A stretch of DNA of 64,000 nucleotides from an uncultured Gammaproteobacteria bacterium (lineage in GTDB: Bacteria; Patescibacteriota; Microgenomatia; UBA8517), in contig CAZTVZ010000004.1 in assembly GCA_964617045.1 (NCBI GenBank), positions 15,799 to 79,798 on the forward strand, written 5' to 3'. The translations under genes were made by a program, and so were the position numbers. Numbering within the stretch: the first letter of the stretch is position 1; the number at the start of each line of letters is the position of its first letter. The notes beneath the pieces were generated by a model. It made no database searches and had not been told where the DNA came from. It worked only from the letters and a program-made list of their open reading frames with translations. Shown one piece after another: positions 3,740 to 63,953 of this stretch.

Positions 3740-3745
3740 TCTTCT

Positions 3746-4672: not shown

Positions 4673-4836
4673 TTCTGCTCGGAATACTCGATCGTTAGTT
4701 TTCCGGCTTTAACGGTTGCGGCACAGCTTCGGATTTACACCGAATTCCTTGAAACACAATCGGTATGTTCATTATGCATTTAACATAATCGAAGTCAATA
4801 GGTTAATATTAATTAGATTAAAAGGGGGTGAGAATT

Positions 4837-5010: not shown

Positions 5011-5050
5011 TCGTTCGGAAATAGTGCGTTAAATGTGCGGTAAATAATCT

Positions 5051-5077
5051 TTGACTTTTTGCTTTTAAGCATATAAT
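5051..5077 (+). promoter_or_regulatory. Sigma70-like promoter (TTGACT-15-TATAAT) upstream of the ZIP transporter gene.
   Basis: TTGACT at 5051-5056 and TATAAT at 5072-5077, with the ATG at 5088. Confidence 0.4.
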
Positions 5078-5087
5078 CTATCGAATT

Positions 5088-26423: not shown

Positions 26424-26426
26424 TAG

Positions 26427-28586: not shown

Positions 28587-28594
28587 TCTTCAAA

Positions 28595-29131
28595 ATGTCT
28601 ATCTACACAAAAAAGGGTGACGGAGGAGAAACAGGCTTATATTCCAGAACCAAAGACAAGGTTGTCCGTATTTTCAAAGATTCACCAATAATCGAGGCGA
28701 TAGGATCTGTCGATGAGGCAAATTCATTTTTGGGTATATGTGCGGACTGTCCCAACAACAATCTTCACAAGAAGATCGTGATTATCCAAAGGGCTTTGTT
28801 TACCGTTGGAGGAATTCTTGCAGGTGCAAAATTATCTATTTCAAATAAACAAATCGAGTATTTGGAAAACGAAATAGACTCCATGGATAAAGAACTTCAA
28901 AAATTATCAGGGTTTATTCTACCTGGAGGTGGATTTACGGGAAGCCATCTTTTTATGGCAAGAACGTTAATAAGGAAAGCTGAACGAAAATTGGTTCGTT
29001 TATCTAAAGAAGAAAAGGTTCCTGCAAGTGTTCTCGTATATGTAAACAGGCTCTCGGATTATGTTTATACCCTCGCAAGATACAGCAATTTGAAAGAAGG
29101 AATTAAAGAGGAGTCTTGGAAGCGTAAATAA
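28595..29131 (+). CDS. pduO: ATP:cob(I)alamin adenosyltransferase, PduO-type.
   Basis: N-terminal TKKGDGGETGL (the PduO T(R/K)xGDxGxT motif) and EANSxxG. Length 178 aa. Confidence 0.8.
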   Translation: MSIYTKKGDGGETGLYSRTKDKVVRIFKDSPIIEAIGSVDEANSFLGICADCPNNNLHKKIVIIQRALFTVGGILAGAKLSISNKQIEYLENEIDSMDKELQKLSGFILPGGGFTGSHLFMARTLIRKAERKLVRLSKEEKVPASVLVYVNRLSDYVYTLARYSNLKEGIKEESWKRK

Positions 29132-29148
29132 TAATGTTAAAATGATTT

Positions 29149-29490
29149 ATGACCATGACTCCGGAACGGGGGAGTTTTCCTGTACAGGAAAGACCGGAAG
29201 AGTTTCCCGAAATTCCGTTAGAAATTGAAAATAAGACTGCCTTAACTCCTACACCTGTCCAATTTAAAGCACAGGTTAAAGACGATAGAGGTAAACCGCT
29301 AATTTCAACCTCCGAAAGGGAAGAAAATAAAATTGTAATTCCCAAACCTAAGGAGCAATTGGAAATTGGAGCAAAGGGTTCAGCCGGCGATGCTTTAACC
29401 TGGTTCAGTCAATTTTGGTTGAGGGCAATTAAAAAAGCGGTATTGGTTGGGAAACAAATATTTTTAAGGAGGGAAAATGCCAATAATTGA
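29149..29490 (+). CDS. Hypothetical protein.
   Basis: 113-aa ORF whose end overlaps the start of the downstream ATPase. No recognisable domain. Confidence 0.35.
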   Translation: MTMTPERGSFPVQERPEEFPEIPLEIENKTALTPTPVQFKAQVKDDRGKPLISTSEREENKIVIPKPKEQLEIGAKGSAGDALTWFSQFWLRAIKKAVLVGKQIFLRRENANN

Positions 29491-31804
29491 TATTAACGCA
29501 ATCGTTTTAGCACTTCTTTTGTTGGGACTTCTTGTTTTGGGATTGTTTGTAATTGGATATGTAGCGTTCATCTTTATTAGGCACAGGAATCGTGAGGAGA
29601 AATCTTTGGAATCAGTACTCATGCAAATAGCAGTTCCAAGAGGAAATGAAACAAAAATTGATGCAATGGAACAAATGTTCTCGTCTCTTTCTTCCTTGAA
29701 AAAAGGAGGCTTTTGGCAAAAGTTTTCATTCCAACCTACGATATCTTTCGAAATTGTGGCCAGAAAGGAAGATATTCGTTTCTATATCTGGACACCGGTA
29801 AAATATAAAGATCTTTTAGAAAAACAAATACACGGAGCTTTTCCTGATGCGGAAGTTTTGGAGGTATCCGAATACAACATATTTAACGAATCGGGCAAAG
29901 TTGCTTATAAATCGCTGCAACTTTCCAAAGAAAATTACTACCCGATCAAGACTTTTAAGGATTTGGCCACCGATCCTTTGGCTGCGATTACCTCTTCGAT
30001 GGCAAAGATGGGGGACGGTGAGGCAGCAGCAGTCCAAATAGTTGTTTCTCCCGCCGATATCCCTTGGCAAAAAGAAGGGGGTAGTTATATCTCCGATACA
30101 AAAAAACAGGAATCTAATCCGGAAAAAGCCAGTTTTTCTACTTCGGGAAAAACTCTTGAATCAATTGAGAGCAAGACTTCCAAACCCGGTTTTGAAGTAT
30201 CGATAAGAATCGTTGCGGTTGCTCCTTCCGAAGAAATTGCAAAAATGCACCTGACCAACATTGAAGCAGGTTTTGAACAATTTAGTTCGGATACCAACAA
30301 ATTCCGATCAAGAAAAATTCGCAACAAAGGAGCTTTTATTGAAGATTTTCTTTATCGGTATCAACCAATGTTTCATTTATTTGGGAATCGCTCTTCGATC
30401 TTAAATTCTGAGGAATTGGCAACACTATTCCATTTTCCGAACAAACAAATTACAACACCCCACATTTATTGGATATATTCAAAAACCGCTCCTGCACCAT
30501 CCGATATTCCAAATGAAGGAATGTTTTTGGGAATTAGTGCCTACAGAGGGGTAAAAAGATCGGTATACATTTCCGACGAAGACAGAAGAAGACACACATA
30601 CATAATCGGAAAAACAGGAACAGGAAAGACAGAACTTTTAAAAGATATGATTTTGCAGGACATTAAAGCGGGTCGTGGAATATGTTTTATGGATCCTCAT
30701 GGAGACGCGATCGAAGATATTTTAAAACAGATTCCTCCGGAGAGAGCGGAAGACGTGATTTATTTTAATCCCGGTGACACCGAAAGGCCGATGGGATTAA
30801 ATCTTCTTGAAGCAAGAACGGAAGATGAAAAACATTTTGTTGCAACATCCGTTATTAATATGATGTACAAGCTTTTCGATCCTTATAAGACAGGTATCGT
30901 GGGTCCTCGATTCGAGCATGCCGTAAGAAACGCAATGCTAACCGTAATGGCAGAACCGGGTAATACTTTCGTTGAGGTCATGAGAGCATTAACCGATGCC
31001 AATTTTGTTCAAGAACTTCTTCCCAAAGTAACCGACCCGATTATCAGAAGGTATTGGACAGATCAAATAGCTCAAACCGCCGATTTTCATAAGTCGGAAG
31101 TTTTGGACTACATTGTTTCCAAATTTGGAAGATTTGTTACCAATAAAATGATTAGAAACATAATTGGACAATCTCAATCTTCATTCTCTTTCAGAAATAT
31201 TATGGATGAAGGGAAAATTCTTTTAATTAATTTGGCTAAAGGTGAAATAGGGGAGGAAAACTCTAATTTCTTGGGACTTGTTTTGGTCCCCAGAATTTTA
31301 ATGGCTGCTATGAGTAGACAAGATGTTCCTGAAGACCAGAGGCGTGACTTCTTCCTTTATGTTGACGAGTTCCAAAATTTTGCCACCCCCGATTTTGCGC
31401 AGATTCTTTCCGAAGCAAGAAAATACAAATTAAACCTTTGTGTTGCCAACCAGTTTATCGGACAGGTTGAGGAAGAGGTGAAAAATGCGGTATTTGGAAA
31501 TGTGGGAACAATTATTGCCTTTAGGGTTGGTGTTACGGACGCTTCTTACCTTGCTCACGAATTTACTCCAACTTTCGGTGAAGATGACCTTTTGAACATA
31601 GAAAGATACCACGCTTATATTAAAACGATAGTTCACAATGAACCCGTGCCCCCGTTCTCAATGGATTTGACCAAAGATATTGCTGCCCAAAAAGCAGCAG
31701 AAAATCATAGAGTAGCAGAAATCGTAAAAGAAATGAGCAGGCTAAAATTTGGAAGAGACGAGCGTCTAGTTGAAGCAGAAATGACCAGAAGGGCTAAGCT
31801 TTAG
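29477..31804 (+). CDS. T4SS-type P-loop ATPase (FtsK/HerA superfamily, VirB4/VirD4-TraD-like) with an N-terminal TM helix and a family-specific N-domain.
   Basis: N-terminal TM helix. Walker A HTYIIGKTGTGKTELL then DPHGD (the T4CP DPxGD-like motif), Walker B FFLYVDEFQNF, and the C-terminal motifs ARKYKLNLCVANQFIGQ. It is a paralog of the ATPase at 61450..63648. Confidence 0.7.
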   Translation: MPIIDINAIVLALLLLGLLVLGLFVIGYVAFIFIRHRNREEKSLESVLMQIAVPRGNETKIDAMEQMFSSLSSLKKGGFWQKFSFQPTISFEIVARKEDIRFYIWTPVKYKDLLEKQIHGAFPDAEVLEVSEYNIFNESGKVAYKSLQLSKENYYPIKTFKDLATDPLAAITSSMAKMGDGEAAAVQIVVSPADIPWQKEGGSYISDTKKQESNPEKASFSTSGKTLESIESKTSKPGFEVSIRIVAVAPSEEIAKMHLTNIEAGFEQFSSDTNKFRSRKIRNKGAFIEDFLYRYQPMFHLFGNRSSILNSEELATLFHFPNKQITTPHIYWIYSKTAPAPSDIPNEGMFLGISAYRGVKRSVYISDEDRRRHTYIIGKTGTGKTELLKDMILQDIKAGRGICFMDPHGDAIEDILKQIPPERAEDVIYFNPGDTERPMGLNLLEARTEDEKHFVATSVINMMYKLFDPYKTGIVGPRFEHAVRNAMLTVMAEPGNTFVEVMRALTDANFVQELLPKVTDPIIRRYWTDQIAQTADFHKSEVLDYIVSKFGRFVTNKMIRNIIGQSQSSFSFRNIMDEGKILLINLAKGEIGEENSNFLGLVLVPRILMAAMSRQDVPEDQRRDFFLYVDEFQNFATPDFAQILSEARKYKLNLCVANQFIGQVEEEVKNAVFGNVGTIIAFRVGVTDASYLAHEFTPTFGEDDLLNIERYHAYIKTIVHNEPVPPFSMDLTKDIAAQKAAENHRVAEIVKEMSRLKFGRDERLVEAEMTRRAKL

Positions 31805-31839: not shown

Positions 31840-31910
31840 GGGTCCTTCGTTCAATGGCAGGACACGACTCTTATAAAGTCGACACAGGGGTTCGATTCCC
31901 TTAGGACCCA
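31840..31910 (+). tRNA. tRNA-Ile with anticodon UAU.
   Basis: Manual fold: a 7-bp acceptor stem GGGTCCT/AGGACCC, a D-arm GTTC/GGAC, an anticodon stem CGACT/AGTCG with loop CTTATAA (U33, anticodon TAT, A37), a T-arm AGGGG-TTCGATT-CCCTT, and discriminator A. CCA is not encoded. Confidence 0.7.
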
Positions 31911-31923
31911 CACTTTTAGGTTT

Positions 31924-49348: not shown

Positions 49349-50317
49349 ATGACAAACACCGAAGTTTTTGCAAAAAAACCTGAGGAAGGCGGAATTTGGG
49401 ACGTGATAATAATAGGATCAGGTCCCGCCGCTTTTTCTGCAGGGGTTTATACCACAAGAGGAGCAGCTTCAACACTAATTCTTGGAGGAGAAAAGTGGGG
49501 AGGTCAATTGATGCTGACTTCAATGGTGGATAATTACATAGGTTTCCCAGAAGGAGTAATGGGGCCAGAACTTATGATTAGGATGAGAAGTCAGGTTGAA
49601 AGATTTGGTGCTGAGTTTGTTGAAAAAAATGTTGTTAAAGTGGATTTTTCTTCAAAGCCGCTTAAGGTGTACACGGACGATAAAGAATATTTGGCAAAAT
49701 CCATAATTGTTGCCACAGGAGCACTGACAAAATGGTTGGGTGTACCTGGAGAAAAAGAATTGGTTGGAAAAGGTGTGTCGACTTGTGCGCCTTGCGATGC
49801 TCCTTTTTTCAAGGAAAAAGTTGTTGCGGTTGTAGGGGGAGGAGATTCTGCCATGGAAGAAGCACACTATTTAACAAAATATGCATCCAAGATATATCTC
49901 ATTCATCGGAGAGACGAATTTAGAGCCGCTCCTGTCATGCAGGCAAAAGTTATCGGCAATCCAAAAGTGGAAATAATGTGGAATACGGAAGTAAAAGAAA
50001 TAATCGGAAAAGACAAGGTTGAAGCTATAAAGGTATTTAATAATAAAGACAATTCCGAAAAAGAAATAACACTAGACGGAGTGTTTGTCGCTGTCGGCCA
50101 CAAACCGGACAGTGATTTATTCTCCGGTATTTTGGAAAGAGATGAGAATGGATACATAGTAAATAAAGATTTTCATCTTAAAACATCGGTTCCTGGTGTT
50201 TTTGTTGCCGGTGATGTTTTTGACAAAGAGTTTAAACAGGCGATTGTGTCGGCTGGTTTGGGTTGCGTTGCTGCGATGCAGGATCTTAAATATCTCGAAG
50301 AAGAATCTAGTAGTTGA
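49349..50317 (+). CDS. trxB: Thioredoxin-disulfide reductase.
   Basis: FAD motif IIIGSGPAAFSAG, the redox-active CAPCD (in place of CATCD), and NADPH motif VVGGGDSAMEEA. Confidence 0.9.
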   Translation: MTNTEVFAKKPEEGGIWDVIIIGSGPAAFSAGVYTTRGAASTLILGGEKWGGQLMLTSMVDNYIGFPEGVMGPELMIRMRSQVERFGAEFVEKNVVKVDFSSKPLKVYTDDKEYLAKSIIVATGALTKWLGVPGEKELVGKGVSTCAPCDAPFFKEKVVAVVGGGDSAMEEAHYLTKYASKIYLIHRRDEFRAAPVMQAKVIGNPKVEIMWNTEVKEIIGKDKVEAIKVFNNKDNSEKEITLDGVFVAVGHKPDSDLFSGILERDENGYIVNKDFHLKTSVPGVFVAGDVFDKEFKQAIVSAGLGCVAAMQDLKYLEEESSS

Positions 50318-50349
50318 CATTAATATCTTTTTTTAAGAAAATTACCTCC

Positions 50350-51120
50350 ATGTCAGAAGGATTAAAGACTTCTACGCTTCAAAGACTAACATCTGTCTTG
50401 TTTCTTCTTGTTGCTCTTCTTGGTATCGCAGTAGGACTTCTCTGGAAGAAAGTAACAACAATGGAAGACGGGGGAGTAAATGTAACAGCACAAACAGCAG
50501 AACTTCTTTCTGTAGATAGTCTTAAAAAATATGCCAAGGAATTGAAATTGAATACAAAACAATTCAATGCATGTCTCGATAGTGGTGACTTTGCTCAAAG
50601 AGTGGGGGACGAGTTTGCAGAAGGCTCGGCTTTCGGAGTAACCGGCACTCCGGGATTTTTCGTCGGCAATGCATATATAGCAGGTGCATATCCATACGAA
50701 TGGTTCCAAAAAGTAATAGATTTCCAACTTAACGGGGGAGATTGGAAAAGACCTACCGAAGATGTAAAAATTTTGGTTGATAAAGATGAAACCAATGGGG
50801 AAATAATTCTTTTGGACAAAGTACCAGAAGTAGGATCGGCTCCAATTATTGGATCAGGTGATGCAAAACTTACAATAATTGAATACTCTGATTTTGAATG
50901 CCCTTTTTGTGCCAGATTCCACCAAGATACATGGCCTTTACTAAAACAAAATTACATTGATTCTGGAAAAGTAAAATTTGCATATAAACAGTATCCTTTG
51001 AATTTCCATCCAGCTGCACAAAAACTTGCAGAGGCATCTCTTTGTGCCAACGAACAAGGCAAATTCTGGGAAATGTATGACAAAATTTTTGAGGCTTCCT
51101 CGAAGGTTTCAGCTCAATAG
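50350..51120 (+). CDS. Membrane-anchored DsbA-like thiol:disulfide oxidoreductase.
   Basis: N-terminal TM helix, then the thioredoxin-fold CxxC FECPFCARFH. An alternative TTG start at 50314 is possible. Confidence 0.75.
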   Translation: MSEGLKTSTLQRLTSVLFLLVALLGIAVGLLWKKVTTMEDGGVNVTAQTAELLSVDSLKKYAKELKLNTKQFNACLDSGDFAQRVGDEFAEGSAFGVTGTPGFFVGNAYIAGAYPYEWFQKVIDFQLNGGDWKRPTEDVKILVDKDETNGEIILLDKVPEVGSAPIIGSGDAKLTIIEYSDFECPFCARFHQDTWPLLKQNYIDSGKVKFAYKQYPLNFHPAAQKLAEASLCANEQGKFWEMYDKIFEASSKVSAQ

Positions 51121-52421: not shown

Positions 52422-54290
52422 ATGAAAAAAACCGTGGCTATTTTTGCTTCAATATTGTCATTTTTGTTTGTCTTTGTACCGGTTTCGCATGCCGAGAAGG
52501 ACTATAACATCGACTCTGCGTATCTGGAGTATTCAATCAATCGGGACGGTTCGGCAAGCGTTTTGGAGAGAAGAGTCTATGATTTTGACGGCAGTTTCTC
52601 TTGGGCTGAGCAATACATTGAGCTTTCTCCATCCTGTGATCGGGGAGAACCATGCGAACCATACAAATTATCCAATATTTCGATTGCCGAAGGAGAGAAA
52701 ACATACACATTATCCGATTCCGGATTACCGTACACCTATGAGCTGGAAGAATCTTCGGATAGGGTGTACCTTAAGTGGCATTACAAAGCTTTAAACGAAG
52801 TAAAGACTTTCGATTTAAGATATACCATCGATAACGCGGTTACCAACCATCAAGATGTCTCGGAATTCTACTGGAAAATGATTGGTTCGGATTGGGATAA
52901 AGGAATTTCCGATGTTTTTGCAACAATAACACTTCCTTATCCCGTAACCGACGGAAATATTTGGGCTTACGGACATGGGCCTTTAAATGGGGAAGTCAGT
53001 ATTCTTTCTGAAACGGACATCTCTTATTCTGTAAAGAATCTCCCTTCAGGAAAAATGGCCGAGGCTAGGATTGTATTTCCAAAAAATGAATCTTTTGTTA
53101 CAGGAAGATCGGGAACCAAAACTTTGGATGAAATCCTGCAACAAGAAAAAGGTTATGGAGACAGAACAAGGGCAGCCCAACTTGCCGTACCGATTATTAT
53201 TTTTCTTCTTTGTTTGTTCCCCATATGGAGAGCGGTCAGGGTGTTTATGAAATGGCTTAAGTACGGCAAAGACAACAAGGTTCCGGAGATAAACTTGTCA
53301 GGAACATTACATGAACCGCCGTCCGATTTGGAACCGGCGTTGGTTGAATCTTTGCTTTCCGGTATTCCGACGGGAAAATCTATTGTGGCAACAATATTGG
53401 AACTTGCCCGTAGAAAAATATTAGCAATCGAATATGAGAAGCAAGGCAAAAAGACTCTTTTTGGTGCCAAAGAAGAATATTTCCTGATTCTCAAAAAGAC
53501 CGATTCAAAAGGTCTTTCTTCCAGGGAGAAGCAATTAATTGACTTTCTCTTTTCCTCTTCAGAAAAAATCAGTTTTAGCGAGGTAAAAGAACTACCCAGG
53601 CAAAAACCCACAAAAGCAAATACTTTTTGGAAAGAATGGAGGGATGATACCTCCAAAGAATTTGTTGATTTGGGCTTTTTCGATAAAGAATCTTACGATA
53701 TGTCCAACAAGTCCAAATTGGATTTGTTTTTGGTGCTAACCTTCGGTTTTATCTATATTTTTGTTCTTCCCGGAACAAGTTTGATTGGTGGAACAACGGG
53801 GTTGGCAGTATGGGCGATTATGCTTCCTATTGTGATTGTTTCAGCTATTTCGATTATTGTTTTCAGTTCGCTTATGAACAAAAAAACTGAAAAAGGGAAT
53901 AGAGAATATGCCGGGTGGTTGGCTTTCAAAAAATGGTTAAAAGATTATTCCGTAACCAAGAACTACTCAATCGACTCGGTTATCCTTTGGGAAAAATACT
54001 TGGTCTACGGTGCGGCGCTGGGCATTTCTTTAAAAGCCCTATCCCAACTTCCAATAAAATTTGGAGAGGCATATAAACATTCCGGTCTTTATGTAATCGG
54101 ATACCCTACAGGAAGTTTTGACGGAGGTTCTTTGGGAAATCTCGGAAGTTCTTTTGCAGGTTTAGAATCAAGTCTTTCGGGATTGTCGTCGAGTTTTGGA
54201 TCATATGGAGCACATGGGGTAGGATCTTCCGGAGGATTTTCCGGAGGAGGTGGCGGAGGAGGTGGAGGTGGCGGAGGAGGTGCCGGATAG
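52422..54290 (+). CDS. DUF2207-family membrane protein with a C-terminal poly-glycine tail.
   Basis: A signal peptide, a large extracytoplasmic N-domain, internal TM helices, and a C-terminus ending in about 20 consecutive Gly (GGFSGGGGGGGGGGGGGAG), which is characteristic of DUF2207 proteins. Confidence 0.6.
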   Translation: MKKTVAIFASILSFLFVFVPVSHAEKDYNIDSAYLEYSINRDGSASVLERRVYDFDGSFSWAEQYIELSPSCDRGEPCEPYKLSNISIAEGEKTYTLSDSGLPYTYELEESSDRVYLKWHYKALNEVKTFDLRYTIDNAVTNHQDVSEFYWKMIGSDWDKGISDVFATITLPYPVTDGNIWAYGHGPLNGEVSILSETDISYSVKNLPSGKMAEARIVFPKNESFVTGRSGTKTLDEILQQEKGYGDRTRAAQLAVPIIIFLLCLFPIWRAVRVFMKWLKYGKDNKVPEINLSGTLHEPPSDLEPALVESLLSGIPTGKSIVATILELARRKILAIEYEKQGKKTLFGAKEEYFLILKKTDSKGLSSREKQLIDFLFSSSEKISFSEVKELPRQKPTKANTFWKEWRDDTSKEFVDLGFFDKESYDMSNKSKLDLFLVLTFGFIYIFVLPGTSLIGGTTGLAVWAIMLPIVIVSAISIIVFSSLMNKKTEKGNREYAGWLAFKKWLKDYSVTKNYSIDSVILWEKYLVYGAALGISLKALSQLPIKFGEAYKHSGLYVIGYPTGSFDGGSLGNLGSSFAGLESSLSGLSSSFGSYGAHGVGSSGGFSGGGGGGGGGGGGGAG

Positions 54291-54948: not shown

Positions 54949-54976
54949 TTGACAAATACTCCCGTTTTGATATAAT
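54949..54976 (+). promoter_or_regulatory. Near-consensus sigma70 promoter TTGACA-16-TATAAT (candidate rRNA promoter).
   Basis: TTGACA at 54949-54954 and TATAAT at 54971-54976, about 210 nt upstream of the mature 16S 5' end. Confidence 0.6.
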
Positions 54977-55030
54977 TTCTTTCGCACGATGAGAACCTAA
55001 TTTACAGGTGGCCGAATAGGCAGTTTACAA

Positions 55031-55050
55031 CCGCCTCCTGGCGGTTTTTT
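55031..55050 (+). terminator. Terminator-like hairpin in the 16S leader (possible attenuator, or the 3' end of a short RNA).
   Basis: CCGCC-TCCT-GGCGG followed by TTTTTT, about 50 nt downstream of the predicted transcription start. Confidence 0.4.
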
Positions 55051-55185
55051 CTTTCTCAGGGGTGCGAGGTTAACTTCCCTTCAGGGTAACAACTTCATAA
55101 TTTGAACCTTAACAATCGAGATGTGACTGGGAATGTATAAAGACGTGCATAGACAATCGTCAAATGTCTATCACCGTCACTTTTT

Positions 55186-56644
<1,459 letters not shown>

Positions 56645-56787
56645 AAGGAGTATCAACACGGGTTTTGCATATTCGTATTTCGGATATGTAAAAAAAGTTT
56701 GTACACCCCCTTTTTAAGACCGTAGTTTTGAGGGTTTCAAAACAGGCGCCGTTCACAGTCACATCTCGAAGGTTAAGGTAAAAAAAT

Positions 56788-56812
56788 ACCCGCACTAAAA
56801 TGCGGGTTTTTT
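56788..56812 (+). terminator. Rho-independent terminator after the 16S rRNA.
   Basis: ACCCGCA-CTAAAA-TGCGGGT followed by TTTTTT. Confidence 0.7.
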
Positions 56813-56886
56813 GATGGGAAAATAACGAGGGAATAAATTGAAGAAAGAAAGAAGAATTTATTACAACGAGAGAAAAGATTTAAGTA

Positions 56887-56932
56887 GGGGACGCTAGTCA
56901 CCAATGATTAGATGAAAGCGTCCCCACTTTTT
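56887..56932. terminator. Second hairpin terminator between the 16S and the convergent minus-strand gene (possibly bidirectional).
   Basis: GGGGACGCT-(21 nt)-AGCGTCCCC followed by ACTTTTT on the + strand. It lies 18 nt beyond the stop of the minus-strand gene that ends at 56950. Confidence 0.5.
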
Positions 56933-56949
56933 AATTGTTTACAACCTGA

Positions 56950-59592
56950 TTACTTTTTGGGCGGCAGAAGCATTATTCCGGAATCAATCTTCCAGTATTC
57001 CGCTACCCATTTTTGGGCTTCTTCGTATGACATGTATTTGTTTTCAACCAAATACATTACGTAGTCATATCCGTTAGGCCCTTGGAATTGGCGGGTAAAT
57101 TCACCTGCTTTGGTGATGTCCCAGCCACCGACAGTACGAGAGCATGATACATACCAACTTCTCCAGCTGGAACTGTAACCCCATACTTTTTCGTATAACT
57201 CACCGGATGCATCGAATGCTACCCAATTGTCGTGAGTGTATTTTTTCTCAAGGTCGATGATGTAGTAAGTGCCGTCAAATCCTTCGAAAGGTTTGGCGTC
57301 AATATAGACCTGTTTGATTTTGTGTTTACCAACTTCAACCAGTCGATATTCGACACCTGCTTCATCCAAAACCTTGGGGTCAACCGAAACAAGAATATAG
57401 AACGGATGGATAGAGCGCATATAAAGGCTTGTGCCTTCCGTCTTTATTCCCCAGTATCCGTCGAGACATACCATACACTCACCTCTGGCGTATTCAACCG
57501 TGACTAAATCGTCAGGTTCTTTTGCCAGTTCTTCTTGGCGAGGTCCGCATGTCGGACACTGAGGTTTCGGTCGTTTAACGTAGCAGCTTCCGACTTCAAA
57601 GGAAATTTCACCATCACCCAAGAACCCTTCAATGGCTTTATATGTACCGGAGTATTTGCCGGCCTTAAAGTCAACTTCGTATGTTCCAGGACCGTAGGTT
57701 TCACCTTCGAGTTCGAGGATTGCTCCTTTTACTTCGATTGTGACCAACGAATGGGAAATTCTTTCCTTCATGTTGAAAGCACATGCTTGGACCGTAATTT
57801 TTACCAGAGGGTGGTCTTTAAGGCAGACTTCATCTTCTTTTATGTTGAAGGTAAAGTCTTTTTCAAAGCCGTCTGGCCAAATTACATGGAAAGATGCTTC
57901 TGCACCTTCCGTTACAAATGGGTCAATCCAATTTCCGCTTGTGGGTGTAGTTGCCGTAACAATTCCACCTTCTGAAGCTTCAAGTCCGATTGACCATCCA
58001 TTGCAGTCTTTATCGACAAGAGGGTTAATCTGATGCTCGAGAACAACAAGACAAGATTTTTCTTCCTTCACTGTGAAGGCGTCGATTTTTGTCTTATCGT
58101 ATATTTCTCCGGGAACTGTGGGGATTAATACTTCAGCGACACTTGCTTCTTCAAGCTTATAAATGTCACCCCATGTACCCGATGCATACTGTTTAACTTC
58201 TCCATCAACTGCAAACCAAGCGTACCATCCCTTACAATCTTGTTCGACACCCGACGTTACCTTGTGGGCAACTTGGCATTTTTCTGGTTCATTAACACTT
58301 TGAGCGGGTACGATTTTGTTGTCGTAAAGCTCCCCATCATTTAATGGAATGTTGATGCTTGCCGCTGTTGCTTCTTCAAGGACGAATGGTTTTGTCCAAA
58401 TACCTTTATCGTAAGCGGTTTCAACACCGTCGATAGAGTAGTAGGCAACCCATCTTTCACAATCGGATTCAATTCTCCAAGTAACCTTGTGGATTAATTG
58501 GCATTTTTCACTTTCTTTTAATCCCTGTGAAGGAATCTCAGAAAGGTTGTATAGCTCACCCGGATTTTTGGGGAAGCTATATGCAGGAACGGTTACGTCC
58601 TCAAGTTTGAACGGTAAAGTCCAATTGCCCGAGGAATAAACGACCTTGTTACCCTTATCGATGGAATACCATGCTTCCCATTTATCGCAATCACCGCCGA
58701 TACCATATTCAACCGAATGGGTTGCCTGGCATCGACCTGCTTCTGTGATTTCTGGGAAATTAAGGGTTTTTGTTGTTTGGTCCGGAAGTGTAATCGTATA
58801 GCTTTTTGCCGGTGTAGATTCAAGAATCCAAATATTGGACCAAGGACCGCTGTCAACGGTAATCCACATTGTGACGGGACTTCCATTATCGAAAATTCGA
58901 TAATATCTTTCCCATCCGGAACAATTTTCTTTGATGTCCTTGATTTCCACTGTATAGGAATGCGGTGGTGGTGGAATAACACATCCTGCTGCCAATACTT
59001 CCGCACCGGTCGCACCCCAACCATATAACGTGGTCAGGTTTTGTCCGGGGTAGGTATGTTGGCCATTTTTATCCCAATACGTGAAGCTCGGGATAATATC
59101 CCCATTGTTCTGATGCTGATCGTGACCCTGCTTAAAAACAGCGTCGTCATCGACGGTGATTAGGTTGAAGGGGTTGGTCTGGCTTGCGGTTGCATGACAA
59201 AGAGTGACAGGAACATGTTGGGCGCAGAAAAGCGAACCTTTTATGCTATGGGAATCCTTGACAGACCCCATAGTCGATCGCAATTCGACATACGCTTCAA
59301 CATCTCCAACGGTATTCGCCGGTGGGATCCACTCAACAGTAAAGCTACTGTCTTCCCATACTGGCCCTGACGAATTTTTACTGGCAACAACAATTCCGTT
59401 CAACTTGATCCAACCAGAGGCCATTCGTGCGTAGCCGGTCTTATTCACAATGGAAATAATGACCTTGGAGCAATCTATTTGGCCGGTTTTATTAGATGTT
59501 TGAAGGGATTCCGCTGCCGCCGGTTGTGCTGCAACTAAAAGCATTGTAAGCACAATAAAAATTGAGCTCAAAAACAACATTGAACGCTTCAT
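56950..59592 (-). CDS. Large secreted protein with 4-5 tandem two-cysteine repeats of about 85 aa and a conserved C-terminal domain shared with the next gene.
   Basis: Signal peptide MKRSMLFLSSIFIVLTMLLVAAQPAAA. Repeats follow the pattern C-Q-x-x-H-x-V-...-D-C-x-x-W-x-A-(W/Y)-(Y/F)-(S/A)-(I/V)-D-G-...-G-(I/N)-W-...-F-x-LEE. The C-terminal roughly 210 aa, beginning CPTCGPRQEE, are homologous to the C-terminus of the 59884..61119 protein. SD AAAGGAGGTAAT. Confidence 0.7.
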   Translation of the reverse strand: MKRSMLFLSSIFIVLTMLLVAAQPAAAESLQTSNKTGQIDCSKVIISIVNKTGYARMASGWIKLNGIVVASKNSSGPVWEDSSFTVEWIPPANTVGDVEAYVELRSTMGSVKDSHSIKGSLFCAQHVPVTLCHATASQTNPFNLITVDDDAVFKQGHDQHQNNGDIIPSFTYWDKNGQHTYPGQNLTTLYGWGATGAEVLAAGCVIPPPPHSYTVEIKDIKENCSGWERYYRIFDNGSPVTMWITVDSGPWSNIWILESTPAKSYTITLPDQTTKTLNFPEITEAGRCQATHSVEYGIGGDCDKWEAWYSIDKGNKVVYSSGNWTLPFKLEDVTVPAYSFPKNPGELYNLSEIPSQGLKESEKCQLIHKVTWRIESDCERWVAYYSIDGVETAYDKGIWTKPFVLEEATAASINIPLNDGELYDNKIVPAQSVNEPEKCQVAHKVTSGVEQDCKGWYAWFAVDGEVKQYASGTWGDIYKLEEASVAEVLIPTVPGEIYDKTKIDAFTVKEEKSCLVVLEHQINPLVDKDCNGWSIGLEASEGGIVTATTPTSGNWIDPFVTEGAEASFHVIWPDGFEKDFTFNIKEDEVCLKDHPLVKITVQACAFNMKERISHSLVTIEVKGAILELEGETYGPGTYEVDFKAGKYSGTYKAIEGFLGDGEISFEVGSCYVKRPKPQCPTCGPRQEELAKEPDDLVTVEYARGECMVCLDGYWGIKTEGTSLYMRSIHPFYILVSVDPKVLDEAGVEYRLVEVGKHKIKQVYIDAKPFEGFDGTYYIIDLEKKYTHDNWVAFDASGELYEKVWGYSSSWRSWYVSCSRTVGGWDITKAGEFTRQFQGPNGYDYVMYLVENKYMSYEEAQKWVAEYWKIDSGIMLLPPKK

Positions 59593-59883
59593 ATTACCTC
59601 CTTTAGGGTTTTAGATTAGAAGCTTTTTCCAGACTACATACAGCCTTGCGAGAAATGTTATTTATTTCACCTCCTTTTCTTTTCTCTCGTTGTTAAAGGG
59701 CTAATTTATTAATTATCTACAAAGCAAATGTTTTGTAGAAGGGAATTGTCAATTGAAATTAACACAACGGGAGAATATTTAAATCAGGGAACACTGATAA
59801 AGCTGATTCCAAATGGAATCATTCAGTGTTCCCATAATCACTTATAGTGGGTCAGCAGGTTTACCCACTATCGTCCGAGAAAA

Positions 59884-61119
59884 TTACTTGGTTGGCAGGG
59901 GGCCGATCACACCGGTTGATTTTGCATCTTTCCAGAGTGCATCGATCCATTCGTCGGCTTTATCGAAGTCGTCGAAGTATCCATCAGCCATTAACCAGGC
60001 AATTACGTCCGAGGAACTGATATTCATCAGTTGCGGAAGTGTCATTGTTCCGTCTTTTTGAACGAACCACGGACCATATGATGCGGAACAAGCAACAAAA
60101 TCATTGACCTTGTCATTGCCGTATCCATCAAGTCGATTTCCGTCCATATCAAAGACGACCCAATTATCCCGGGTTATCGATTTCGGTTGGATGATCTGGT
60201 AATAGGTCTTGTCGAGTCCCTCAAAAGCTTGAGCAACAATAAAGACCTGTTTGATTTTGGCTTCACCGACTTCTTTTACTTCGTACGGTACGCCGGCATC
60301 GATCATCGTTTGTTCCGGAACGGAGACAAGGATCTTGAACGGACTGTCACCACGGAGGTATAGATATGCACCGGTTGTAATGAAGCCATAGTTGCTTCCA
60401 AAGAAACAATCGACACAATCCATTGCACCTTCGATTTGAACAATATTGCCTTCAGCAGCCGCTACTTCATCCTGATGCGGTCCGCATTCGGGGCATGTTC
60501 GGCGAGTTCCATGAACCCAGCATTTTTCCAGTTGTTCCAAAACACCTTTGTACTTGGTACTGCCGTCGGCGAATTTATATCCGCGGTCTGCATACACCTT
60601 GTATTCAAAGGGGGCTTCCTGGTTATTGAGGGTTAACTTCTCAGATCCTTCAATTACAATATCACCCATAATGAATTTGGCATGATGAGTGGTTATGTAA
60701 ACAACCATCCATGATCCCTTGATTTCTTCACTGCAAAGAACTTCAATGTCGACAGAAGCAAATTCTCTCAAGCATTTGTCCTTCTCGGTTACAGAATAGG
60801 GGATCTTGGTTTCGTGCCAAACTTTTACCCAGTCCCAATACTTTGGCCAACCAACATACTTCCATTCCCAGGTGTACCACTTGAGCAATATTTTGCCGTT
60901 TGCGGTTTCCGTTAAGTATGGATCAGTCCAGTAGCCTTTGGCATTTGACCAGGTTGAGTGTTCCGGGGCGTTCTTGATCGTAACTTCATAACCTTTGCAG
61001 TCGTTTTTGATGACTTCTGCATACGGCTTGGGTGGATTATATGTTGCTCCCACCGGGGTCACCACGGCAAAGAGCATTGCAACAACAATAAGAACTGCGA
61101 AAACCTTAAACTTAGACAT
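59884..61119 (-). CDS. Secreted protein, a paralog of the previous gene through a shared C-terminal domain.
   Basis: Signal peptide MSKFKVFAVLIVVAMLFAVVTPVGA. The C-terminal domain aligns with the previous protein: CPECGPHQDE ~ CPTCGPRQEE, PFKILVSVPEQTMIDAGVPYEVKEVGEAKIKQVFI ~ PFYILVSVDPKVLDEAGVEYRLVEVGKHKIKQVYI, and RDNWVVFD ~ HDNWVAFD. Both proteins end in an LPxK-type tail. Confidence 0.7.
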   Translation of the reverse strand: MSKFKVFAVLIVVAMLFAVVTPVGATYNPPKPYAEVIKNDCKGYEVTIKNAPEHSTWSNAKGYWTDPYLTETANGKILLKWYTWEWKYVGWPKYWDWVKVWHETKIPYSVTEKDKCLREFASVDIEVLCSEEIKGSWMVVYITTHHAKFIMGDIVIEGSEKLTLNNQEAPFEYKVYADRGYKFADGSTKYKGVLEQLEKCWVHGTRRTCPECGPHQDEVAAAEGNIVQIEGAMDCVDCFFGSNYGFITTGAYLYLRGDSPFKILVSVPEQTMIDAGVPYEVKEVGEAKIKQVFIVAQAFEGLDKTYYQIIQPKSITRDNWVVFDMDGNRLDGYGNDKVNDFVACSASYGPWFVQKDGTMTLPQLMNISSSDVIAWLMADGYFDDFDKADEWIDALWKDAKSTGVIGPLPTK

Positions 61120-61418
61120 TACGTCCTCCTTTTAAAATTCCGCCCTCTCTGGCGTTACTGACCAAATGTGCAACAAAGTTTGGATGCACATGTGTAGAGC
61201 CTTACTGTTGAACTTTTTTAAGAACACCTCCTCTCGGATTAGATTTATTATTCTCCCGTTGTTAAAGAGCTTTCATCGGGATTTGGTTGTCGCCCAGAAG
61301 AGCTATACCCACCCCCAAAATGAAGTACTTTGGGTGGGTTCGCTATTAGACTCCGCATAGCCCATAAGCGACCAATTATTAAGGCTATACATCCACGTCT
61401 CTCAGAAGTACGGTGTAG

Positions 61419-61446
61419 ATTATAGCACTAATAAGGGCAAAATCAA
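61419..61446 (-). promoter_or_regulatory. Promoter TTGATT-16-TATAAT (minus strand), about 300 nt upstream of the 411-aa secreted-protein gene.
   Basis: Read on the minus strand: TTGATT at 61446-61441 and TATAAT at 61424-61419. It is followed by a long hairpin-rich leader. Confidence 0.4.
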
Positions 61447-61449
61447 TCC

Positions 61450-63648
61450 CTAGTCTCCGTTGCGGTGGTAATGTGACTGATGGCCCATAGGTTGGGGTTT
61501 GTTGGTGAATTTATTCAGAATGTTTTGATGAAATCTTCTTGCCCACCTTTGTCTGGAAGAGGCAATTACCTTCTCCCTGTGTTGGTTGGAAGATATGGGG
61601 AGGGGAAGAGTATAGGCAAGGAAAGGTCGGGTAGTAAGGCCGTTAATAGTCATCTTGATTGCAACCTGATAATTGGACAAATTGACCATGTCGTTCTGCG
61701 TGAAAACCTCAGCAAACTCCTTGTAGAGGATTTCGGCATCCGATGCTCCTACCGCAAAAGTGATAATAGTTCCGGCATTTCCGAGTATGGCTTTTTGAAC
61801 CTCTTCCGGGATTTGGGCCATATATTGATTGGCGAGTGTGATATTGAGTCTATACTTTCTGGCCTCCGACATTATTTTAATAAACGAGCCTGTAGCGAAA
61901 TTCTGAAATTCGTCGACGTAAAGGTAGAAATCCCTTCTTAATTTTTCATCCATATCCACCCTGTGCATGGCTGAGAGTTGGAGTTTTGTAATAAGCATGG
62001 CTCCCAATAGTGCTGCGTTGTCTTCACCCAATCTTCCCTGAGATAAGTTACAAAGAACAATTTTCCCTTCGTTCATTGCATCGTCTAATTTTACCGATGA
62101 CTTTGGAGAACCAATTACAGATCTGATAAGAGGGGAAGTAACAAATTGTCCAACTTTATTAAGAATTGGTGAAATAGCCTCTTTCTGAAGTTGGGGAGTC
62201 ATCTTCTCGAATTCGTCCATCCAAAATGATTTAAGGGTTGGATCTTTTACGTTTTCAACCACTTTTTTACGATATGCTTGATTGGTAAGAATCATCGGAA
62301 CATCTTTTAGGGTTGCGTTTGGCACTTCCGCCAAAGTCAGAAGAGTAGTTCTAAGAATATATTCGAGTCTTGGACCCCAGGAAAAACCGAATATTTTATT
62401 GAATATAGAAACGATTCCCGAAACCACGAGTTCCGCCTCTTCTTTGTTGGTCACCTCCAAAGGATTAATTGTGATGGGGAAATCCTTGTCGGACGGATTG
62501 AAGTAAATCACATCATTAATTCTGTTTTTAGGCACATAATTTAATAGTATTTCGCAGGCGTCTCCGTGTGGATCGATATAGCAAATACCTCTTCCTTTTT
62601 TCATATCATCAATTGCCATGTTTACCAAGAGCGTGGATTTTCCAGTTCCGGTTTTTCCGATTGTCCAGAGATGTCTCCTGCGATCAATATCTTTTATTCC
62701 GAATATTGTGTCCCTATTTTTGAATTGGGTTTTAGCAAAAAAGTTGATTGTCTTCTTTTCTTCATCGGTTGCATTCAAGGCTGTTGGAAGAGTTTCTGGT
62801 GGTTCGGAAAGGACACTTTGACCCCAGGCAATTGTCGGGGTTTTAATCTTATCGGAAGGAAGATGCCATATAGTAGCCAGCTCCAGGATATTCATTATTT
62901 GATTATCCGACACTTCTCTGGAAAGAAGCTTTTCGAGAGATTTATCTTTCATAAGTATGGATTTTTTCTTGTTGGAAAAACTGTTTCCGTCGGCTCGAGT
63001 GAATACACCGAATGACGAGATTATTTCTTTTCTTGTTTTATCGGAATTTCCGGCCACTCTTAGAGAAACCTTAAAACCCGGATAACTAATTTTCTCTTTT
63101 ATTATTGCCTGATCGTTTCTGGGCGAATATGTGCCGTCTTCTTTCTTTTCTCCTTTTTCGGCATATGCTGCACCGTTTGCCTGCCAAGATGATCCTGCTC
63201 CTTCAAGGGCAATTTGAATAATTGCAAATTCGTCCGGACTTGCCTTGGCGAGTACAGAGAGTATTGAAGACAAAGGGTCAATCTCCGTAAATTTCGAATA
63301 ATCGGCAATTGGATAATACGAACCTTTTTTTAGCACTAACGTATTTACCCCCAGATTTTGGCCGGTTAAAGGATCGTTTATTTTTTCAATTATTGCCAAA
63401 GGATAATTGCTCTGAATCTGAGTCGTAATAAAAGGTATTAAATCCGTATCACAAGTTATTTGAAATTGGATCTGTTGATTTGAAAGACAAATCTCGAGAG
63501 CTAATGGTTGAACTTTTGTTCCTGTAAGTTTTTGGAAAAAACTCACTCCGTTTATTTGGGTCAAAGCAGAAAGGAATGTTTTCGCTGCTTCAGGAGTTAT
63601 CTCCGTATTCCTAGGCAGCTTAATAAGAAGGGTGGTCAGGTCTTGCAT
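61450..63648 (-). CDS. T4SS-type P-loop ATPase (FtsK/HerA superfamily, VirB4/VirD4-TraD-like), a paralog of the 29477..31804 protein; no N-terminal TM helix.
   Basis: Walker A HLWTIGKTGTGKSTLL then DPHGD, Walker B FYLYVDEFQNF, and ARKYRLNITLANQYMAQ. The N-domain aligns with the paralog (ELATIWHLPSDKIKTPTIAW ~ ELATLFHFPNKQITTPHIYW; YPGFKVSLRV ~ KPGFEVSIRI). Confidence 0.7.
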   Translation of the reverse strand: MQDLTTLLIKLPRNTEITPEAAKTFLSALTQINGVSFFQKLTGTKVQPLALEICLSNQQIQFQITCDTDLIPFITTQIQSNYPLAIIEKINDPLTGQNLGVNTLVLKKGSYYPIADYSKFTEIDPLSSILSVLAKASPDEFAIIQIALEGAGSSWQANGAAYAEKGEKKEDGTYSPRNDQAIIKEKISYPGFKVSLRVAGNSDKTRKEIISSFGVFTRADGNSFSNKKKSILMKDKSLEKLLSREVSDNQIMNILELATIWHLPSDKIKTPTIAWGQSVLSEPPETLPTALNATDEEKKTINFFAKTQFKNRDTIFGIKDIDRRRHLWTIGKTGTGKSTLLVNMAIDDMKKGRGICYIDPHGDACEILLNYVPKNRINDVIYFNPSDKDFPITINPLEVTNKEEAELVVSGIVSIFNKIFGFSWGPRLEYILRTTLLTLAEVPNATLKDVPMILTNQAYRKKVVENVKDPTLKSFWMDEFEKMTPQLQKEAISPILNKVGQFVTSPLIRSVIGSPKSSVKLDDAMNEGKIVLCNLSQGRLGEDNAALLGAMLITKLQLSAMHRVDMDEKLRRDFYLYVDEFQNFATGSFIKIMSEARKYRLNITLANQYMAQIPEEVQKAILGNAGTIITFAVGASDAEILYKEFAEVFTQNDMVNLSNYQVAIKMTINGLTTRPFLAYTLPLPISSNQHREKVIASSRQRWARRFHQNILNKFTNKPQPMGHQSHYHRNGD

Positions 63649-63728
63649 ATATTTATTATAGCGTGGCTGCAGTTTTTTAACATAATAAAACCCCCTTCAG
63701 GTAATAAAACCACAAAGGGGGTTAATTC

Positions 63729-63953
63729 TTACTGCGTATATATACGACAGCGTTTAAGCGCAAAGATGATCGTTCTCAGATCTTGGGAGAGAATATCTTT
63801 TCCGGGATCGTCGGGATCAAATGTAATCTTTTCAAGTTCTTCCAGGATTTCTTTAACTCGAAAAAAGGGGGCTTGTCTGAAAGAGATTAATATTTCTCTT
63901 CTGATATCAAGTTTTTCTTTTTTATCGTTAATTACATTGATATATTCCTCCAC
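63729..63953 (-). CDS. Small hypothetical protein upstream of the ATPase.
   Basis: 74 aa. It is followed on the minus strand by a hairpin AACCCCCTT...AAGGGGGTT plus a U-rich run (63680-63715), then a TATAAT box 7 nt before the ATPase ATG. Confidence 0.35.
   Translation of the reverse strand: MEEYINVINDKKEKLDIRREILISFRQAPFFRVKEILEELEKITFDPDDPGKDILSQDLRTIIFALKRCRIYTQ

Follow-up and report, generated by a model that had tools for sequence, protein, structure and literature searches.

What does a gene block of mixed content do inside an rRNA operon, and how are its secreted products made? The question is raised by three co-oriented open reading frames (ORFs) on the minus strand of a 64,000-nt stretch of DNA from an uncultured bacterium (GTDB lineage Patescibacteriota, Microgenomatia, UBA8517; assembly GCA_964617045.1, contig CAZTVZ010000004.1, positions 15,799 to 79,798), the whole of which is referred to here as the window. 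They encode an ATPase of 732 amino acids (aa), a secreted protein of 411 aa and a secreted paralog of 880 aa; reading of the ORFs confirmed exactly the order and coordinates given in an initial annotation, which had seen in the three genes a secretion or surface-display system made of a coupling ATPase and its cargo. That annotation overlooked that the block lies within an rRNA operon, and also that the leader of each secreted-protein gene holds a boxA element and an arm complementary to the gene's own 3' flank. It seems reasonably probable that the block combines two kinds of unit which have a location in common, not a mechanism, and that the secreted-protein genes are expressed by way of rRNA-style cassettes.

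Leader and trailer elements of the secreted-protein genes

boxA elements and leader-trailer helices are hallmarks of rRNA transcription, with few regulatory exceptions. Elements resembling both surround the 411-aa and 880-aa genes, in the following order:

61419..61446, minus strand: predicted promoter for the 411-aa gene, TTGATT and TG-n-TATAAT with a 16-nt spacer (10 of 12 positions matching, plus the TG), beginning 4 nt past the stop codon of the ATPase
61307..61339, minus strand: leader hairpin of the 411-aa gene, ACCCACCCAAAG...TTTTGGGGGTGGGT, between promoter and boxA, in the boxB position
61260..61270, minus strand: boxA of the 411-aa gene, GCTCTTTAACA, an exact match to GYTCTTTAANA
61244..61262, minus strand: 5' arm of the 411-aa gene, ACAACGGGAGAATAATAAA, beginning inside or just after boxA
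59884..61119, minus strand: 411-aa secreted protein, with signal peptide, one immunoglobulin (Ig)-like two-Cys module, a second beta-sandwich and a CPxCGP...LPTK C-terminal domain
59764..59782, minus strand: 3' arm of the 411-aa gene, TTAAATATTCTCCCGTTGT, 102 nt past the stop codon
59717..59738, minus strand: leader hairpin of the 880-aa gene, CTACAAA...TTTGTAG, upstream of boxA
59691..59701, minus strand: boxA of the 880-aa gene, GCCCTTTAACA, with one mismatch
59678..59693, minus strand: 5' arm of the 880-aa gene, ACAACGAGAGAAAAGA
56950..59592, minus strand: 880-aa secreted paralog, with signal peptide, variable N-terminal module and five Ig-like two-Cys repeats of about 75 aa
56863..56878, minus strand: 3' arm of the 880-aa gene, TCTTTTCTCTCGTTGT, 72 nt past the stop codon
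56788..56807, both strands: bidirectional intrinsic terminator, common to the convergent 880-aa gene and 16S unit

The arms of the 411-aa gene form an inverted repeat that pairs at 17 of 19 positions (89%), those of the 880-aa gene one that pairs at all 16. Their core, ACAACGRGAGAA, is present in four copies here and in one, with a mismatch, in the other 57 kb of the window, against 0.7 expected; its sense copy extends upstream to AGCTCTTTAACAACGRGAGAA. The consensus GYTCTTTAANA is that of functional boxA elements (Baniulyte et al., PMC5725501), and the 880-aa gene, one mismatch away from it in the window, has the exact GCTCTTTAACA in strain L001 of the same species. With a promoter predicted upstream, these consensus matches would fall within transcribed leaders. 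The stem of the 411-gene hairpin appears in both the minimum-free-energy and the centroid structures and analogous hairpins occur in other leaders, while the aligned leaders of locus L010 also have TGnTATAAT and the same order of elements. The promoter of the 880-aa gene is uncertain, the candidates being TGTGTTAAT near 59758-59766 and TCTACA-16-GATAAT at 59712-59739.

The leaders occupy gaps of 330 nt (ATPase to 411-aa gene) and 291 nt (411-aa to 880-aa gene), much as the initial annotation had measured them (330 and 290 nt). Its description of them as structured holds only weakly, the 411-gene leader alone folding somewhat better than shuffles (z=-1.9, against -0.2 for the 880-gene leader); the strong Shine-Dalgarno (SD) sequence that it gave to every gene is present before the two secreted-protein genes (AAAGGAGGACGTAATG, AAAGGAGGTAATATG) and missing before the ATPase. 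Rfam returned no known cis-regulatory RNA in 56.9-64 kb. The 411-gene leader also contains a second boxA-like element, GTTCTTAAAAA (one mismatch; 61215-61225, minus strand), 45 nt downstream of the first, and just before it an SD-like GAGAGGAGGTG without a start codon; an orphan SD-like AAAGGAGGTGA directly follows the arm in the 880-gene leader.

The natural comparison is with rRNA leaders, where promoter, boxB, boxA and boxC follow one another and boxC is the 5' strand of the leader-trailer helix (PMC10250234). The neighboring 16S unit has this layout: a perfect consensus promoter at 54949-54976, a leader with the boxA-like CCTTAACAATCGAGA, and a 33-nt inverted repeat (55101-55133 with 56752-56784) whose 5' arm contains the boxA-like element. 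The same element stands before 16S or 23S elsewhere in the lineage (loci L007, L012, L020, L022, L023, L028, and L029). The secreted-protein units have in common with the rrn antitermination elements and leader-trailer helices the order promoter, hairpin, boxA and a strand pairing 3' of the product, together with a boxA matching the consensus; they differ in carrying as payload not an rRNA but a protein-coding gene preceded by a strong SD, and in their shorter helices (12-24 bp), and a like function is putative. In the 16S leader, a terminator-like hairpin with T-run lies between promoter and boxA (window 55029-55046), and a second terminator-like hairpin is found upstream of tRNA-Ala and 23S in L001 (~4700-4725); these could be boxB-type hairpins, or attenuators overridden by antitermination.

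The 3' arms of the secreted-protein units lack the boxA part, an asymmetry more in keeping with a leader-trailer helix in RNA than with recombination sites or transposon ends, which are symmetric. Integron attC sites, repeats of diversity-generating retroelements and ends of miniature inverted-repeat transposable elements were set aside by reasoning from this asymmetry, the fixed boxA offset (below) and the 16S parallel.

The arrangement recurs in other genomes. An exact or one-mismatch boxA stands before the secreted-protein genes downstream of the ATPase in L008, L010, and L009 (where both genes have it), before signal-peptide genes in L030, L035, and L038, and before members of the secreted-protein family in L039 and L040. 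L030, L035, and L038 come from a metagenome scan with a 20-nt motif, and were the only clear cassettes among its nine matches; another match (L033) is on a short contig with no gene called, and the remaining five look like chance or unrelated ones. In the 483 kb of fetched DNA there are 20 exact boxA matches, 12 of them in DNA obtained independently of the motif. Every one of these 12 falls between genes and points in the sense direction, and for 10 of them an ORF whose start resembles a signal peptide follows 47-151 nt downstream; the same crude test finds such a start in 22% of background ORFs, and tandem paralogs make these counts less than fully independent. Locus L008 has three tandem paralogous signal-peptide beta-propeller genes (752-4629; PD40/Tricorn-like), with an exact boxA, GTTCTTTAAAA, 64-65 nt before the start; no 3' partner arm is detectable for these three.

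A 3' partner arm accompanies 11 of the 16 boxA-led units (7 of 11, 2 of 3, and those of L039 and L040 by reading of the flanks). The offset from the start of boxA to the start of the 5' arm is 7-12 nt in every case, and the distance from the stop codon to the 3' arm is 11-170 nt. When nine units were aligned on a GAGAA core, 95.4% of cells in a 12-bp core paired, against 81.5% in shuffles (none of 500 reached this value); shifting the partner by 1-3 columns lowers pairing to about 50%, and flanking columns pair at chance. Compensatory changes are found in six pairs of the core (0 of 500 shuffles). The independent evidence for the helix is this covariation, the fixed boxA offset and the sharp helix boundaries; the complementary flanks that characterize a leader-trailer helix are present, and the bracket recurs with covariation.

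How might such a cassette work? The 411-aa and 880-aa units look like an rRNA gene in their build: sigma-70 promoter, hairpin, boxA, 5' arm, long leader with strong SD, coding sequence, and a 3' arm some 70-110 nt past the stop codon. One strong promoter or more would drive both genes, giving transcripts with long untranslated leaders, and NusB/NusE-type factors loading at boxA would render RNA polymerase termination-resistant through these; a scan for intrinsic terminators gave none between the two genes, so that transcription may run on to 56788-56807. The 5' arm next to boxA could then pair with the arm past the stop codon, as in pre-16S and pre-23S rRNA, and this pairing would either protect or stabilize the mRNA ends or form a double-strand processing site releasing each mRNA. 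The secreted products would be exported by Sec, and the ATPase would be transcribed separately, from its own promoter and antisense in the split rRNA operon.

Use of boxA outside rRNA has precedents. boxA-dependent Nus regulation is known for suhB and other genes (PMC5725501), and for CRISPR arrays, where it concerns the termination and antitermination of long array transcripts (PMC7665894); they share with the present units a consensus boxA within the 5' untranslated region of a transcript other than rRNA. The suhB boxA is near the start codon and represses translation (PMC5725501), whereas here it is 130-170 nt upstream and has a 3' partner arm, and the targets are putative secreted surface proteins in a lineage of the candidate phyla radiation (CPR). 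A literature search joining boxA, antitermination and Patescibacteria found no account, and no earlier description of boxA coupled to a gene-bracketing helix around protein-coding genes was found in the literature consulted.

Several points weigh against this reading of the locus. The boxA consensus used is gamma-proteobacterial, and the species' own rRNA copies (GAACCTTAACA before 16S, GTACATTTACA before 23S) fit it worse than the mRNA copies do. The helices are short, with a 12-bp core and 14-24 bp in individual units against 33 nt around 16S, which makes RNase III cleavage uncertain. Five of the 16 boxA-led units (the 246-aa gene of L010, L030, and the three propeller genes of L008) have no 3' arm. 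The pairing percentage is inflated and partly circular because the arms were picked by best complementarity, and the sample of helices is small and partly related. As for the separateness of the ATPase, signal-peptide genes always follow it in its close clade (ATPases at least 69% identical), so that a clade-specific functional tie is possible.

A bolder version of the cassette reading can be offered tentatively: that the whole block is a protein-coding mimic of an rRNA operon, a single antiterminated precursor with its promoter at 61446 and its terminator at 56788, containing two mRNA “products,” each with its boxA and leader-trailer helix. If this were true, output of major surface proteins in Woesebacteria-like CPR would be tied to the rRNA-synthesis machinery and to its growth-rate control, and in this lineage boxA and an end-pairing helix would together make up an expression cassette dedicated to secreted proteins. 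Covarying boxA/helix cassettes around secreted-protein genes suggest that the rRNA expression toolkit has been reused by a CPR lineage for envelope proteins, the molecules most likely to mediate attachment to hosts; boxA with a 3' partner arm could serve as a sequence signature for candidate highly expressed surface proteins in uncultivated genomes.

Another possibility, which we consider unlikely, is that the boxA-like elements and arms are non-functional relics of an rRNA leader and trailer, duplicated when the genes were inserted into the spacer. The genes do lie inside an rRNA operon, beside genuine leader and trailer sequences, and the purine-rich arm resembles the 23S leader (...CTGAAGAGAAAGG); the boxA-led units without a 3' arm would also be in keeping with this reading. 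Relics, however, would not be expected to stay alike next to proteins that have diverged to 30% identity, as the noncoding elements of the two window genes have done, nor to recur where the ATPases are 71-79% identical and before unrelated genes, including the L008 propeller genes, which are off the spacer. The mRNA copies of boxA are also better matches to the consensus than this species' rRNA copies, and the compensatory changes indicate selection for pairing.

The secreted-protein family

Classical N-terminal signal peptides were read in both products (...VVTPVGA/TYNPP and ...AAQPAAA/ESLQ), in agreement with the initial annotation, and their paralogy was confirmed by BLASTP (E=4e-42, 30% identity). 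The C-terminal region that they were said to share exists but is larger than thought, about 370 aa rather than about 210, which is nearly the whole of the 411-aa protein. Similarly, the tandem two-Cys repeats of the 880-aa protein are real, with five units beginning near residues 210, 288, 364, 439, and 514, but their period is about 75 aa and not about 85; the pattern is C-x4-H-x-V ... DC-x2-W ... IDG ... W-x2-PF-x-LE, and the fifth repeat is the unit in common with the 411-aa protein. The 880-aa protein has the same C-terminal domain and ends in LLPPKK; an LP-x-K-type end is present in both proteins, as had been noted, and recurs in the family. A sortase LPXTG signal is a different matter: the proteins end 2-3 residues after LP (...GPLPTK, ...LLPPKK) and have no C-terminal hydrophobic segment.

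The repeats had not been recognized as a named domain, and no named domain was found in these proteins by searches of Pfam, NCBIfam, PHROGs, and PADLOC. Curated models of Ig-like domains (PKD, Big, FN3, Cna-B) gave no profile match, a PDB sequence search with the family gave no match, and a BFVD structure search gave no significant one. The structure model shows confident beta-sandwiches whose structural neighbors are solely of Ig/FN3/PKD type; the C-terminal domain is without a Pfam or PDB relative. A Cys/His-rich segment occurs in the N-terminal modules of several members, for example CHATASQTNPFNLITVDDDAVFKQGHDQHQNNGDIIP in the 880-aa protein (residues ~125-175) and CHVAGRADDPANYIEQTVSINAALGHFYENG in the homolog P0003 (~120-170), and has no Pfam match.

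The family is rare. A word-indexed search found 3-5 proteins, both for the 411-aa query (three clusters) and for a 19-sequence profile, and an exhaustive profile search raised this to 86 representatives in a set of 1.84 billion proteins. Its members are modular, two-Cys units being joined to the CPxCGP...LP-x-K C-domain, to other Cys-rich ends, or to a hydrophobic anchor followed by basic residues; in some homologs a C-terminal transmembrane (TM) anchor takes the place of the C-domain. The homolog at the same position in L009 has 895 aa, with seven repeats and the same C-domain. In strain L001 the 880-aa protein is replaced by a 783-aa allele (L001 11557-13908) in which the last ~670 residues are essentially identical, while the signal peptide and the N-terminal ~200 residues are unrelated. 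Such a swap of N-terminal modules between strains is what an exposed distal module open to exchange would show; the alignment ruled out a change in repeat number, the other candidate for the difference in length.

The family can thus be described as an unnamed, rare, modular surface-protein family, and the 411-aa and 880-aa proteins as Sec-exported, probably disulfide-bonded modular cell-surface proteins in which the C-domain may be the envelope-attachment end. This interpretation draws on the signal peptides, the Cys pairs, the anchors that replace the C-domain, the variable N-terminus and a DsbA-like gene in the window. The last belongs to a pair (49349-51120, plus strand), thioredoxin reductase followed by a DsbA/thioredoxin-like gene, which fits with extracytoplasmic disulfide formation in Cys-rich secreted proteins. 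With modular Ig-like adhesins and S-layer proteins (PKD/Big/FN3) the family has in common a signal peptide, tandem beta-sandwiches, a variable distal module and variable repeat number, and, in some homologs, a C-terminal TM anchor; it differs from these in having no Pfam or NCBIfam match and a conserved Cys pair in each module.

The ATPase and the split rRNA operon

The genes and elements that bear on the ATPase and its surroundings are:

61450..63648, minus strand: coupling-protein-like ATPase (paralog A, soluble), residues 1-300 being the DUF8128 N-domain and the rest a P-loop motor with a putative helical insert
63655..63660, minus strand: TATAAT box, 6 nt 5' of the ATPase ATG, as read from the sequence
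55180..56642, plus strand: 16S rRNA gene, convergent with the 880-aa gene
29477..31804, plus strand: coupling-protein-like ATPase paralog B, 35% identical to paralog A, with an N-terminal TM helix (hydropathy 3.23)

From the position of the TATAAT box and the missing SD, the ATPase start is probably leaderless. A terminator-like hairpin, CCCCCTT...AAGGGGG with T-run (~63682-63722), closes a 102-aa gene upstream of it.

Contigs of the same species extend the view past the window edge and give the order 16S, 880/783-aa gene, 411-aa gene, ATPase, five small ORFs, tRNA-Ile, tRNA-Ala, 23S, 5S, in which everything from the 880/783-aa gene to tRNA-Ile is antisense to the rRNA. The tRNAs are the canonical spacer pair, tRNA-Ile(GAT) and tRNA-Ala(TGC), and together with the gene order they point to a classical 16S-Ile-Ala-23S-5S operon that has been split. 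In the window's clade, tRNA-Ile has been inverted and lies on the same strand as the ATPase. The small ORFs upstream of the ATPase, two of them with TM helices, were considered as conserved partners and rejected: they have no homolog in any other locus and no Pfam match.

This position of the ATPase is widespread. It lies antisense between 23S and 16S in L001 (same species), L007, L009, L010, L020, L023, and L029, and has rRNA on one side in L008, L011, L012, L015, L022, and L028; rRNA is within the flank in 13 of 23 distinct ATPase loci, all of them orthologs of paralog A, down to about 50% identity. In the split operons (the window, L001, L007, L009, L010, L020, L023, and L029) 16S is followed by 2-10 kb of antisense genes including the ATPase, which in L023 and L029 is the sole gene between 23S/tRNAs and 16S. 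Could the loci without rRNA be orthologs of paralog B instead? This was ruled out, all of them being closer to paralog A. Lui et al. found most CPR rRNA genes to be “unlinked by distance,” with opposite-strand genes between them that were left unnamed (PMC8172020); the conserved antisense ATPase names one gene behind the unlinked rRNA genes of many CPR, and no earlier description of this position inside CPR rRNA operons was found in the literature consulted. It also provides a fixed landmark for a protein of open function.

The rRNA genes of these loci have further peculiarities. The 23S gene of L001 (471-4490) contains a group I intron (Rfam, 807-1033) and an ORF for a LAGLIDADG homing endonuclease (1773-2228), the 23S genes of L009 and of L010 contain one to two such introns, and the 16S region of L009 spans 2.3 kb, suggesting an insertion. 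Past the window edge, L001 has a 100-aa ORF with its own terminator (4941-5380) on the rRNA strand, upstream of tRNA-Ala/23S; it has the promoter TTGACT-17-TATTAT and a one-mismatch boxA, GTTCCTTAAAA, 17 nt before its SD, and tRNA-Ala/23S has a separate promoter, TTGACG-17-TATAAT.

The ATPase itself is a soluble paralog of the orphan VirD4/TrwB-type coupling-protein homologs of Patescibacteria, a family whose members and orphan status are already known. It has the P-loop nucleotide-binding domain of the FtsK-HerA superfamily with Walker A and Walker B, and all the motifs first listed for it (GKTGTGKS, DPHGD, VDEFQNF, ANQ) are in the 732-aa translation. In Pfam, TraG-D_C (1.8e-6) and DUF87 (1.9e-5) are over the cut-off and TrwB_AAD_bind, a model listed for most homologs too, is below it (16.9 bits against 20.5); the NCBIfam matches to VirD4, TraD, and CedD are all sub-threshold. 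Of the “VirB4/VirD4-like” motor proposed earlier, the VirD4/TrwB side is therefore borne out by TraG-D_C, and the VirB4 side is not, the CagE_TrbE_VirB architecture being absent. The N-domain of about 300 aa that had been described is matched by DUF8128, which covers the N-terminal 300 aa in precomputed annotation. The structure model has a helical block at residues 402-526, which may correspond to the all-alpha insert of coupling proteins, and the closest solved structures by sequence are TrwB and DotL (E ~4e-3). Identity as a housekeeping FtsK/SpoIIIE translocase does not fit, the protein having neither the FtsK_SpoIIIE signature nor the C-terminal gamma domain, which binds KOPS. Judged by the modeled fold, it is most likely a ring-forming NTP-driven translocase.

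Its relatives are numerous: over 6,127 clusters match at E<1e-10, and the best of them, 70-85% identical, are spread over Woesebacteria, Microgenomates, and Parcubacteria. The type IV coupling protein (T4CP) prototypes TrwB (1E9R) and DotL have in common with it an FtsK-HerA P-loop motor, putatively with helical insert, and the TraG-D_C match. A 2025 survey of Patescibacteria found 5,713 VirD4-type T4CP homologs in 2,918 genomes, 148 of them near virB4, with a homolog that is non-essential in S. epibionticum and possible exaptation to other functions (PMC12102498); the two paralogs in the window are consistent with the approximately two per genome of that survey, and like those orphan T4CPs they lie away from virB4. 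Differences from T4CPs are the lack of an N-terminal membrane anchor (maximum 19-aa hydropathy 1.39), unlike paralog B, the extra ~300-aa N-domain (DUF8128), to which there is no structural match, the lack of relaxase or type IV secretion system (T4SS) genes nearby among the ORFs scanned, and the fixed antisense position inside an rRNA operon, of which no earlier mention was found in the literature consulted. Paralog B, which has a clear TrwB_AAD_bind match (1.6e-10), is outside the module, among housekeeping genes that include ribonucleotide reductase and cobalamin genes. A tRNA-Ile(TAT) gene (31840-31911) is directly 3' of it, so that both paralogs adjoin a tRNA-Ile gene.

Does the ATPase, then, form one system with its secreted neighbors? 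The initial annotation proposed that it energizes or couples a dedicated secretion or display system whose substrates are the paralogs with LPxK tails, a reading which the distribution data largely refute and which we regard as very unlikely. The genes are adjacent and co-oriented, the ATPase has by its model a coupling-protein fold, and the conserved LP-x-K C-terminus might be a signal. Throughout the close clade (the window, L007-L011, and L035) each locus has between one and three signal-peptide genes after the ATPase, and L009 and L040, described below, also count in favor of the proposal. A slot adjoining 16S and occupied by changing secreted-protein genes does recur in the clade with ATPases at least 69% identical. 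What occupies this slot, however, is often unrelated to the window's proteins. Among ATPase loci other than those of the species itself, a true homolog lies downstream only in L009; L008 has a weak match to the N-domain of the secreted family, L008, L010, and L011 have unrelated signal-peptide proteins, some with sortase-like or TM ends, and in more distant genomes 16S or opposite-strand genes are found downstream of the ATPase. Each partner also occurs alone. In L023 and L029 the ATPase has no such neighbor, while the family member P0003 lies between ruvC and DUF2207/L19 with no ATPase, and P0128 (L039) is in a 23S-16S spacer, on a contig spanning the entire spacer, again with none. P0132 (L040) is near an ATPase but has an opposite-strand gene in between, and the family member of L038 abuts a 16S gene. 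The numbers are no better matched, with over 6,000 ATPase clusters against about 86 representatives of the secreted family.

No VirB6, VirB8 or pilin-like genes, which might have been expected just past the window edge, were found in the 7 kb beyond it, and no T4SS, pilus, sortase, VirB4/VirB6/VirB8 or relaxase genes were found there or among the ~20 larger window ORFs scanned (~30 further ORFs being outside the scan). The ATPase is soluble, the predicted promoters are separate, at least for the ATPase and the 411-aa gene, and the Sec signal peptides and many Cys residues of the paralogs are consistent with export and oxidation outside the cytoplasm; T4CP homologs unlinked to T4SS genes and non-essential are, moreover, what the literature describes (PMC12102498). 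The recurrence data, separate promoters, Sec signals, soluble ATPase and lack of channel genes together leave “ATPase plus cargo” unsupported. The original claim is better replaced by two statements: the ATPase is an already noted orphan coupling-protein homolog, and its neighbors are most probably not its cargo.

DNA-level alternatives and the rest of the window

If the cassette elements act in RNA, the same inverted repeats might still be suspected of acting in DNA, either as sites at which an invertase flips each gene against its promoter (phase variation) or as the terminal repeats of a mobile cassette. Phase variation typically affects surface proteins, and here a perfect or near-perfect inverted repeat surrounds each gene and the N-terminal module differs between strains. 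Nor does the covariation by itself distinguish the two: in the 12-bp core all compensatory changes are Watson-Crick to Watson-Crick, with no G-U, as identity at the DNA level would also give, although the unit of the 895-aa gene in L009 pairs via G-U outside the core. We nonetheless think this highly improbable, since the six contigs of this species, which come from different samples, all agree in orientation, the genes examined within and next to the module gave no recombinase or transposase, boxA is in the 5' copy only, leaving the arms asymmetric, and the neighboring 16S has in the same arrangement a textbook RNA leader-trailer helix (PMC10250234).

That the block as a whole came in as a mobile element or is what remains of a prophage, integrated by targeting the rRNA spacer or its tRNA, with the ATPase as transfer or packaging motor and the secreted proteins as accessory genes, is scarcely credible: the matches of the ATPase to phrog_5156, an entry of unknown function (5e-77), and to the defense-system model mad8 (2e-16), the raised GC of the secreted-protein genes (43-45% at 56000-62000 against 36-41% over most of the window), the tRNA gene at the upstream edge and the species-specific small ORFs upstream are set against an ATPase whose position, kept to ~50% identity, and 70-85% identity across CPR classes indicate a resident gene that is inherited vertically, a set of examined genes in which no integrase, relaxase or structural gene was found, and tRNAs that are the canonical spacer tRNAs and not an attachment-site duplicate. 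Candidate causes of the raised GC are amino-acid composition, high expression or foreign origin.

The ORFs scanned elsewhere in the window are housekeeping genes: penicillin-binding proteins, FtsH, a class I aminoacyl-tRNA synthetase, an ATP-dependent ligase, Fic, thioredoxin reductase, the DsbA-like protein and ribonucleotide reductases. Upstream of paralog B (23838-29131, plus strand) are two large ribonucleotide reductase genes (TSCPD domain; ATP-cone) and a cobalamin adenosyltransferase gene, and an AdoCbl-II riboswitch (4689-4762, minus strand), just over threshold, lies upstream of the ORF at 3746-4672. A DUF2207 membrane protein (52422-54290, plus strand) ends in 13 glycines, which accounts for a poly-proline ORF on the opposite strand as an artifact.

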